Source: a virus
Taxonomy: Duplodnaviria > Caudoviricetes
Reading direction: 5' to 3' (one strand)
DNA: 64,000 nt
IMG/VR virus record: IMGVR_UViG_3300005937_000199
Coordinates: 1-64,000 of that record
The position numbers and the translations under genes are program-made. The notes beneath the pieces are model-generated. The model worked only from the letters and a program-made list of their open reading frames with translations, did not search any database and had not been told where the DNA came from. Of the stretch, positions 2,187-3,462 are shown one piece after another. Position 1 is the first letter of the stretch. Every line of letters starts with the position of its first letter.

Positions 2187-2900
2187 ATCGAGCCATGATG
2201 TCCGAGAGGACCACTTACAGCGAGCGAGCCGTGGAGTACGATAGCAACATACTGTGTAAGCGAGTCAAGATCACAGAGAGGACCCTGTTAGCAGAGCGAG
2301 CCAAGAGATCAGGAGAGCACCCATCACGATCAGCGAGCCAAGCAAACTGACAAGCAACAAGCTAAGTGAGCGAGCCGTGGGACGTGAGGGCACCAGCTTC
2401 TTATAGCGAGCCAGTTGGCATTAGAGGACCAGTCTCGTGCAGCGAGCCATACCTACCGGAGAGCACCACGCTTCTGAAGCGAGCCGCGTCACCTGAGGGA
2501 ACCACACTGGTGCAGCGAGCCATTGAGGTACGAGTGAGCCATCGAACTCAAGCGCACCATCTCTCGTCAGCGAGCCATCGGTAAAGAGAGCACCGCTTCG
2601 ATGGAGCGCAGCCAGGGAACTGAAGTAGCAACCAGCTTGACCGAGCGAGTCATCGTTCTCCAGAGCACCATTCGAGTTAGCGAGCCATATCAGGGAAGTG
2701 AACCATGTTGTCAAAGCGAGTCAACTGCAACGAGAGGACCAAAAGGACGAAACGAGCCATCGGATTCGATAGCAACAGAGCTTACAAGCGAGCCACGATT
2801 TCCTAGGGCACCAAAGAAGCCGAACGAGCCAGCCTTGAAGAGAGCACCTTGATGCGCAAGCGAGCCACGTTTCACGAGAGCACCAAATGTCCATGAGCGA
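2187..2900 (+). ncRNA. TIGR-like array 1: 19 full 36-nt units plus one half unit
   Basis: Parses as AGCGAGCCA-N9-AG(A/G)G(C/G)ACCA-N9, e.g. AGCGAGCCG CGTCACCTG AGGGAACCA CACTGGTGC; both repeats start AG and end CCA; spacers unique. Confidence 0.9.
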
Positions 2901-2910
2901 GGAGGTGAGT

Positions 2911-3087
2911 ATGACAATCAAAGTAACAGACCACACGAGCAGCGGTAAGCGCAGTGTCGGTACGCCTGGCAATCACGCTAGTTGGCCGACACGTACCTAC
3001 AGCCGCCTCAACCGCGCCGAGGCATGGATCGCCTACCTGTTGGCGATGTTCCCCGGAGCCAAGGTCGAGCGCGTCACCGTCCCATAG
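2911..3087 (+). CDS. 58-aa hypothetical protein embedded between the two arrays
   Basis: Strong RBS GAGGAGGTGA then ATG 2911; MTIKVTDHTSSGKRSVGTPGNHASWPTRTYSRLNRAEAWIAYLLAMFPGAKVERVTVP; repeat periodicity absent over this interval. Confidence 0.7.
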   Translation: MTIKVTDHTSSGKRSVGTPGNHASWPTRTYSRLNRAEAWIAYLLAMFPGAKVERVTVP

Positions 3088-3092
3088 CAATC

Positions 3093-3462
3093 GACTAGCC
3101 AAATTGCACGAGAGTGCCAAGCAGTAAGAGCGAGCCATCAGTCGAGAGAGCACCCACTAACCCGGAGAGCGAGCCAGCGCTGTAGGAGAGTACCCAGCAA
3201 CCGCAGCGAGCCGAAGGACGTGAGAGGGCCGAAGATTCGTAGCGAGCCATACCAACTTGGAGAGTACCGAAGAAGGACAGCGAGCCACCTTGCCTGAGAG
3301 GGCCGAAGAAGCGAAGCGAGCCATTCCAGATGAGAGCACCACATCGGGAGCGAGCCAACGATTCGTAGGGCACCAGTGAATCAGAGCGAGCCTAGGATGA
3401 CGAAGGGCACCATAGGGCAAGAACGAGCCATGTGCTCCGAGAGAACCAAGTGTTCCAGAGCG
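3093..3462 (+). ncRNA. TIGR-like array 2: 10 units
   Basis: Same edge repeat AGCGAGCCA with loop variants AGAGCACCA/AGAGTACC/AGAGGGCCG/AGGGCACCA and mostly 9-nt spacers; ends 25 nt before the tas start codon. Confidence 0.88.

Follow-up and report, generated by a model that had tools for sequence, protein, structure and literature searches.

A small protein gene within a dual-repeat TIGR array of one phage lineage

We describe an architectural variant of the known TIGR-Tas system: in one phage lineage, a protein gene lies within the TIGR array. The window (the whole stretch of DNA analysed, 64,000 nucleotides) is most of a 72.9-kb uncultured virus record, and its DNA is present in rhizosphere metagenome runs. 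Reading of the sequence and a scan for repeat cores located a dual-repeat TIGR array on the + strand (2186-3458), upstream of a TasA-like gene. This array is interrupted at 2902-3093 by a 58-codon open reading frame, hereafter called the ORF (Table 1). We consider it rather probable that the ORF is a genuine small phage gene from an almost orphan family, seated in the array gene slot of a single lineage, and not a core component of TIGR-Tas.

Results

Anatomy of the array

Two short repeats alternate throughout the array: an edge (GAGCGAGCCA) and a loop (GAGAGCACCA), separated by spacers of 8-9 nt and recurring with a period of 36-37 nt over about 30 units. In consensus, both repeats start with GAG and finish with the box-C trinucleotide CCA. 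Dual-repeat arrays are recognized by this pattern: two different repeats, each 8-12 nt long, take turns with spacers of about 9 nt, the resulting unit of about 36 nt occurs in many copies, and both repeats have the same CCA end. In such arrays the ends of the two repeats also covary. In array 1, edge-like (GCGAGCCA) and loop-like (AGAGCACC) 8-mers follow one another in steps of 17-19 nt from 2188 to 2877, with edges at 2188 to 2860. Array 2 is a regular series of ten units in total (3094-3458). A half unit occurs at 2515-2541: its two edge repeats, 19 nt apart, enclose a single spacer and no loop repeat. Elsewhere in the window, on either strand, there are no further clusters of edge or loop repeats. 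The 29 full guide units were searched for self-targets (spacer A plus the reverse complement of spacer B, gaps of 0-2, up to 3 mismatches), which gave no perfect match and only matches at noise level.

Table 1. Features of the array, the ORF and tas in the window.
Feature	Position	Strand	Basis
Promoter-like block GGGCTTCTTGCGCTATGATC, possible -10 TATGAT at 2156-2161	2143-2162	+	Identical in nearest relative L002, where the flanks diverge
TIGR array 1 (19 full units and one half unit)	2186-2894	+	Alternating repeats, 36-37 nt period
3'-truncated edge GAGCGAG, end of array 1, box-C CCA missing	2895-2901	+	In register, 37 nt after the edge at 2860
Shine-Dalgarno AGGAGGTGA	2900-2908	+	Sequence; overlaps the last two bases of the truncated edge
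58-aa ORF, predicted small beta-beta-beta-alpha-beta protein	2911-3087	+	Codon log-odds, homologue P0002, AlphaFold2
Unit Y, first of array 2, degenerate edge ACTAGCCA	3094-3129	+	Homologous unit at L002 2865
Remainder of TIGR array 2, nine units	3130-3458	+	Repeat-core scan
Unit X, truncated edge AGAGCG and degenerate unit, the tas leader	3457-3487	+	Aligns with L002 unit 2829
tas, TasA-like, 314 aa, Nop-type domain	3488-4432	+	phmmer, phrog_4285 (6.6e-56)

Truncated terminal edges are typical of TIGR arrays: in the published pattern an array opens with a 5'-truncated edge and closes with a 3'-truncated edge, behind which lies a rho-independent terminator (Faure et al., Science 2025, PMC12045711). 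The 36-nt tigRNAs are cut mid-edge, and arrays may flank tas on both sides (PMC12045711; Xu et al., bioRxiv 10.64898/2026.09.09.750476). The window has truncated edges at three places (2895-2901, 3094-3101 and 3457-3462). Unlike the known dual-repeat TIGR-TasA systems, however, its arrays 1 and 2 each lead into a gene and not into a terminator.

At the left junction the edge due at 2897 reads GCGAG and then diverges; with the bases 5' of it, the sequence is GAGCGAG-GAGGTGAGT-ATG. The Shine-Dalgarno motif AGGAGGTGA is a perfect 9-nt complement of the anti-Shine-Dalgarno, placed 2 nt before the ATG at 2911 and with 5 nt from its GGAGG core to the ATG. At the right junction the stop codon TAG (3085-3087) is followed by CAATCG and then by the degenerate 5' edge ACTAGCCA (3094-3101), after which a spacer, a loop (17 nt on) and a second spacer are all in register. 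An earlier, sequence-only reading had noticed both junctions, and direct reading bears it out: the terminal edge runs into the perfect Shine-Dalgarno of the ORF (2895-2911), and the array resumes just after the ORF stop, six bases on, with a degenerate edge.

The junctions are not an assembly artefact, because an independent Logan contig of 644 nt spans 2671-3314 with zero differences and an ENA contig is 99.97% identical to the window over 3290 nt. Contigs from two DNA runs show both the junctions and microdiversity of the array. One contig from the source metagenome joins 3350 directly to 3424, so that 73 nt of array 2 (two units, 3351-3423) are missing. Whole-unit change of TIGR arrays is thus directly visible in a natural population, as a 73-nt deletion polymorphism. 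A co-occurring variant contig differs in the tas leader and the opening codons of tas, where it has substitutions at 3467, 3493 and 3529 and has lost 3 nt at 3497.

The Tas protein

The gene downstream of array 2 encodes a Tas with a Nop-type RNA-binding domain, related to the C-terminal domain of IS110. In phmmer searches the protein matched TasR chain 9mty_A (3.8e-12, query residues 37-175 on chain residues 123-259) and TasH (2.2e-10), and against Pfam it matched Transposase_20 (1e-4). Because the TasR match begins near the Tas N-terminus, we class the protein as TasA-like. Moreover, the match starts at residue 37 of Tas as against residue 123 of TasR, so the sequence appears to leave no room for an N-terminal RuvC domain; a Pfam scan found no HNH family in it. 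The tas leader consists of AGAGCG (3457-3462) and a degenerate unit, whose second spacer supplies the Shine-Dalgarno AAGGA (3479-3483).

The ORF occupies a tas-type slot

The boundaries of the ORF slot are those of tas throughout the Tas clade. On its left stands a 3'-truncated edge that keeps only the half belonging to the preceding guide, followed by a short purine-rich leader and the start codon; on its right stands a stop, followed by a 5'-truncated edge (the TAG/CCA form) that opens the next guide. Since the half-edges that they need are kept, both flanking guides are intact.

Among relatives, the box-C end of the first downstream edge directly adjoins the tas stop, or is fused with it, at no fewer than 37 of 78 loci. 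The forms are TAG/CCA (10), TAG/TCA (2), TAA/GCCA (5), TAA/GTCA (6), TAA/CCA (8), TGA/GCCA and others. At about half of the 78 loci, among them L009, L011, L024, L027-L029, L049-L051, L055, L056, L059, L060, L063, L065-L068, L070-L072, L074, L075, L078, L079 and L083-L086, the stop is fused to a 5'-truncated edge, so that the tas message ends on bases with which the first guide begins. Upstream arrays finish in GAGCG 5-30 nt before the tas start at nine or more loci; the gap is 5-8 nt in L024, L032, L057 and L076, and 1 nt in L003. An edge that runs into a ribosome-binding site is therefore not special to the ORF, since tas, the window's own included, follows the same plan.

Distribution of the ORF

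The nearest relative that we found (L002/L008, a complete 112.9-kb phage genome) encodes a Tas 84% identical to that of the window, and in the roughly 5 kb that follow tas its nucleotide identity is 67-82%. Upstream of tas a single array runs unbroken for 2.3 kb and comprises about 65 units (L002 1640-3960, equal to L008 2615-4949). This is very long; in published text the most common TIGR array size is 5-15 units. No homologue of the ORF was found in this complete genome, in four further records of Tas phages (of which three are rated complete) or in 750 kb covering 85 Tas loci, and blastn of positions 2100-4500 against GenBank phages gave no match. Among 80 relatives that use the same repeats, no gene other than tas has arrays on both sides.

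An exhaustive phmmer search of 1.84 billion cluster representatives returned a single true homologue besides the ORF itself. This protein, P0002, has 63 aa and 45% identity to the ORF product (E 5.1e-08). Its gene belongs to an operon of small genes on a 136-kb ENA contig (sample ERZ25039591), with RusA, RecT and PD-(D/E)XK genes nearby. It shares 4 nt with one neighbour and 1 nt with the other, which leaves no space for a surrounding array. Two other candidates, P0003 and P0004, were rejected as repeat proteins matched over 26-27 low-complexity residues, as were weak tblastn matches of P0002 in L070, L074, L083 and L084 (E 0.009-0.65), which are antisense to a real gene of 151-184 aa. A word-indexed protein search, with the ORF alone or with a two-sequence profile, and back-translated pattern scans of IMG/VR yielded no further homologue. 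Judging by its absence from relatives, the ORF appears to be lineage-specific and not a conserved or core part of TIGR-Tas.

Some relatives have small ORFs of a different kind next to tas. L037 and L046 (5768-5850) each have a short ORF of membrane type that overlaps the stop of tas (ATGA) and precedes the downstream array. A 248-aa T5orf172/MUG113 (GIY-YIG-like) gene (Pfam 1.9e-16) comes next in L037, where the interposed genes lie at 5777-6610, but is absent from L046. In L080 a 55-aa membrane-type ORF (5846-6013) lies between tas and the downstream array.

Possible origin of the extra block

Unit-by-unit comparison of the window with L002 revealed six shared units. Three of the matches are in the same order: window 2788 with L002 3522, 3130 with 3632, and 3206 with 3670. 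Two units lie between the first and the second of these in both phages. Because the flanking units map at the same spacing, the ORF and unit Y together form an additional block of some 233 nt when compared with L002. The counterpart of Y itself (window 3094) is found at L002 2865, about 770 nt further upstream and directly after unit 2829; the Y edge reads CTAGCCA in the window and CTAGTCA in L002 (GCTAGTCA at L002 2865). Unit X, the window's tas leader, aligns with this same unit 2829 with a score of 17.5; the runner-up among the 67 units reaches 8.0 (mean 4.9, s.d. 2.2). X and Y, neighbours in L002, are therefore the two ends of array 2 in the window.

These correspondences suggest an ancestor with a gene between X and Y, probably a tas copy in view of the TAG/CCA signature and the X leader. 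Y would then have been the first unit of an array downstream of that gene, most likely a second copy of tas. In the L002 lineage the gene between X and Y may have been lost cleanly, whereas in the lineage of the window repeat-mediated recombination would have placed the ORF before Y, the ORF and Y arriving as one block by recombination at the repeats. The order of events is unrooted as between insertion in the window and loss in L002. That the slot once held tas is an idea that turns on one base, the change from CGAG to CTAG.

The main alternative is that there was never a gene slot here, and that the following edge has its TAG by chance. Consistent with this, the left and right flanks of the gap nearly rebuild one edge (GAGCGAG ... 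AGCCA), the CTAG edge variant occurs at least once more inside the L002 array, and tblastn detected no tas relic in 2880-3110 (best E 0.35). Yet a simple insertion does not account for Y, which sits elsewhere in L002, some 770 nt upstream beside the homologue of X, and TAG/CCA is the standard fusion of tas stop and edge in the Tas clade. We regard this alternative as unlikely. The proposal that the ORF is inserted cargo, offered by the sequence-only reading as its fallback, fits the data best once it is refined in two respects: the slot is of the tas type, and the ORF probably came with the unit that follows it.

Transcription and a possible role with Tas

All features of the locus lie on the + strand, and between 1900 and 4700 a consensus scan detected no terminator-like site on that strand and no sigma-70-like promoter. 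The scan did not pick the block at 2143-2162 either. This TATGAT block and a GC palindrome in the array leader (CGCGCACGCGCG, 2113-2124) are conserved in L002 although the upstream genes differ, and both are candidate regulatory or promoter elements of the array. Folding of the RNA at 2857-2960 gave no structure that masks the Shine-Dalgarno of the ORF (z +0.93). The suggestion that one transcript serves as both guide precursor and mRNA is accordingly plausible as far as strand, the lack of an internal terminator or promoter and the conserved upstream block go.

A single precursor starting from the block near 2156 would carry array 1 (about 20 guides), the ORF, array 2 (10 guides) and tas, with the ORF translated from its strong Shine-Dalgarno. 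Tas-dependent cuts in the flanking half-edges could then free an ORF mRNA of about 200 nt, which would start at or just before the Shine-Dalgarno and end shortly past the stop. A similar release would have to happen for tas mRNA in the Tas clade.

It has been proposed that the ORF is a Tas partner, processing factor or inhibitor. Such a product would be a lineage-specific functional accessory of TIGR-TasA (modulator, inhibitor or processing cofactor) whose dose is tied to guide maturation. In favour of such a role, the ORF has an array of the same strand on either side and no terminator intervenes; for guides inside tas, maturation of tigRNAs has been suggested to be tied to translation of Tas (bioRxiv 10.64898/2026.09.09.750476); and L037, L046 and L080 have other small ORFs between tas and an array. 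However, these are unrelated membrane-type peptides, and neither the closest relative nor some 80 further loci of this Tas clade carry the ORF. Its only homologue, P0002, is encoded among overlapping small genes and not in an array. Furthermore, neither family nor fold hints at RNA or Tas binding. A complex prediction of Tas (6-row alignment) with the ORF product (2-row alignment) scored 0.00 and was counted neither for nor against. On this evidence an accessory role is improbable.

We would give little credence to the most far-reaching version, in which the precursor is a dual-purpose RNA: TasA cuts in the half-edges would excise a minimal mRNA with its 5' end at the Shine-Dalgarno, and guide maturation would set the amount of a TasA-modulating protein. 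If true, the small protein could be a lineage-specific brake or cofactor of TasA, and the same logic would hold for tas wherever its stop is fused to an edge.

The ORF is very probably a real gene

Codon usage, the homologue, the predicted fold and the Shine-Dalgarno motif together make it very probable that the ORF is a real gene. Its frame has a codon log-odds of +0.09 per codon, the sole positive value of the six frames (the other five range from -0.18 to -0.96); both this value and its GC3 of 0.71 resemble those of neighbouring small genes. Identities with P0002 run from residue 3 to residue 55 (IK.T.H..SGK..GTPG....WPTRTY...RA..W), and the alignment favours a start at 2911 and not at the upstream ATG at 2887. 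AlphaFold2, run from these two sequences, predicts a beta-beta-beta-alpha-beta fold with pLDDT 85.5 and pTM 0.67. On the + strand of the window GGAGGTGA occurs 6 times, against about 1.6 expected. The other five sites (15222, 18217, 18475, 20563 and 21028) are mainly in the structural-gene region, and three of the five have a start codon within the scanned spacing, opening frames of 78-218 codons. Four GGAGGTGA sites read GGAGGTGACAAG, mostly ahead of structural genes.

Known families and folds give no function. The ORF matched no Pfam (E<=1) or PHROG family, and a feature search of the ESM Atlas gave a best score of 0.83, which is chance level. Foldseek of the ORF model against the PDB returned nothing at E<=1e-3. 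A wide VIA-align search gave a best Z of 5.9, for the TolR periplasmic domain, with AcrIF5 at Z 4.7; these are ordinary small-domain resemblances from which we draw no function. The closest likeness is to small uncharacterised phage beta-beta-beta-alpha-beta proteins such as the DUF7372 protein of Mycobacterium phage Gaia (BFVD A0A068F2G8; TM 0.78/0.88, r.m.s.d. 1.5, Foldseek E 7e-3), which is similar in size and predicted fold, although the ORF has no sequence-level match to that family in Pfam at E<=1. Most likely, the ORF product is an ordinary small early-type phage protein.

That the 190-nt gap is decayed or scrambled array, or other filler, left open by chance is very improbable. Open frames of 58 codons are common in 62% G+C DNA, so that length alone is unremarkable, strings resembling an edge (GAGCGCGTCA, 3066-3075) and a loop (ATAGCAA, 3084-3090) occur in the 20 nt that precede array 2, and the ORF belongs to no Pfam or PHROG family. 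But the interior of the gap has no 36-nt periodicity, and against such filler stand a homologue at E 5e-8 among 1.84 billion proteins with motifs conserved over residues 3-55, a frame ranked first of six, a confident predicted fold and a perfect 9-nt Shine-Dalgarno at ideal spacing.

Discussion

The locus resembles the dual-repeat TIGR-TasA systems (PMC12045711; bioRxiv 10.64898/2026.09.09.750476) in its two repeats of about 10 nt ending in CCA, its 8-9 nt spacers, its 36-nt unit and its phage carrier; its effector, as judged from the protein sequence, likewise appears to be a Nop-type Tas without an evident nuclease domain. It differs from them in having a second, unrelated protein gene between two arrays.

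Two known arrangements come close to it. In the TasParB-TasA operons, as the text of Faure et al. 2025 describes them (fig. S14), an accessory with a ParB-like domain is operonic and conserved with tasA. The ORF, by contrast, has 58 aa, shows no ParB-like domain in a Pfam scan nor any other recognised domain, and is absent from relatives, hence not conserved with the Tas clade. The tigRNAs inside the tas coding sequence (bioRxiv 10.64898/2026.09.09.750476, section 5) similarly combine guide and mRNA on one RNA, with maturation and translation possibly coupled. The window, however, has a separate gene among guides and not guides within tas, and in its relatives tas stops are fused to the first edge.

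The ORF itself adds one more small uncharacterised phage protein, from a single lineage. Because the breakpoints lie at half-edges, protein genes can ride inside a TIGR array and leave the neighbouring guides unbroken. The relatives give a family-wide rule, in which an array ends in GAGCG before the tas start and the tas stop is part of the first edge, and the comparison also provides evidence of reshuffling and deletion at the level of units. The TIGR-Tas field is young, and the ORF locus offers a naturally occurring case in which to ask whether the processing of guides and translation disturb one another.
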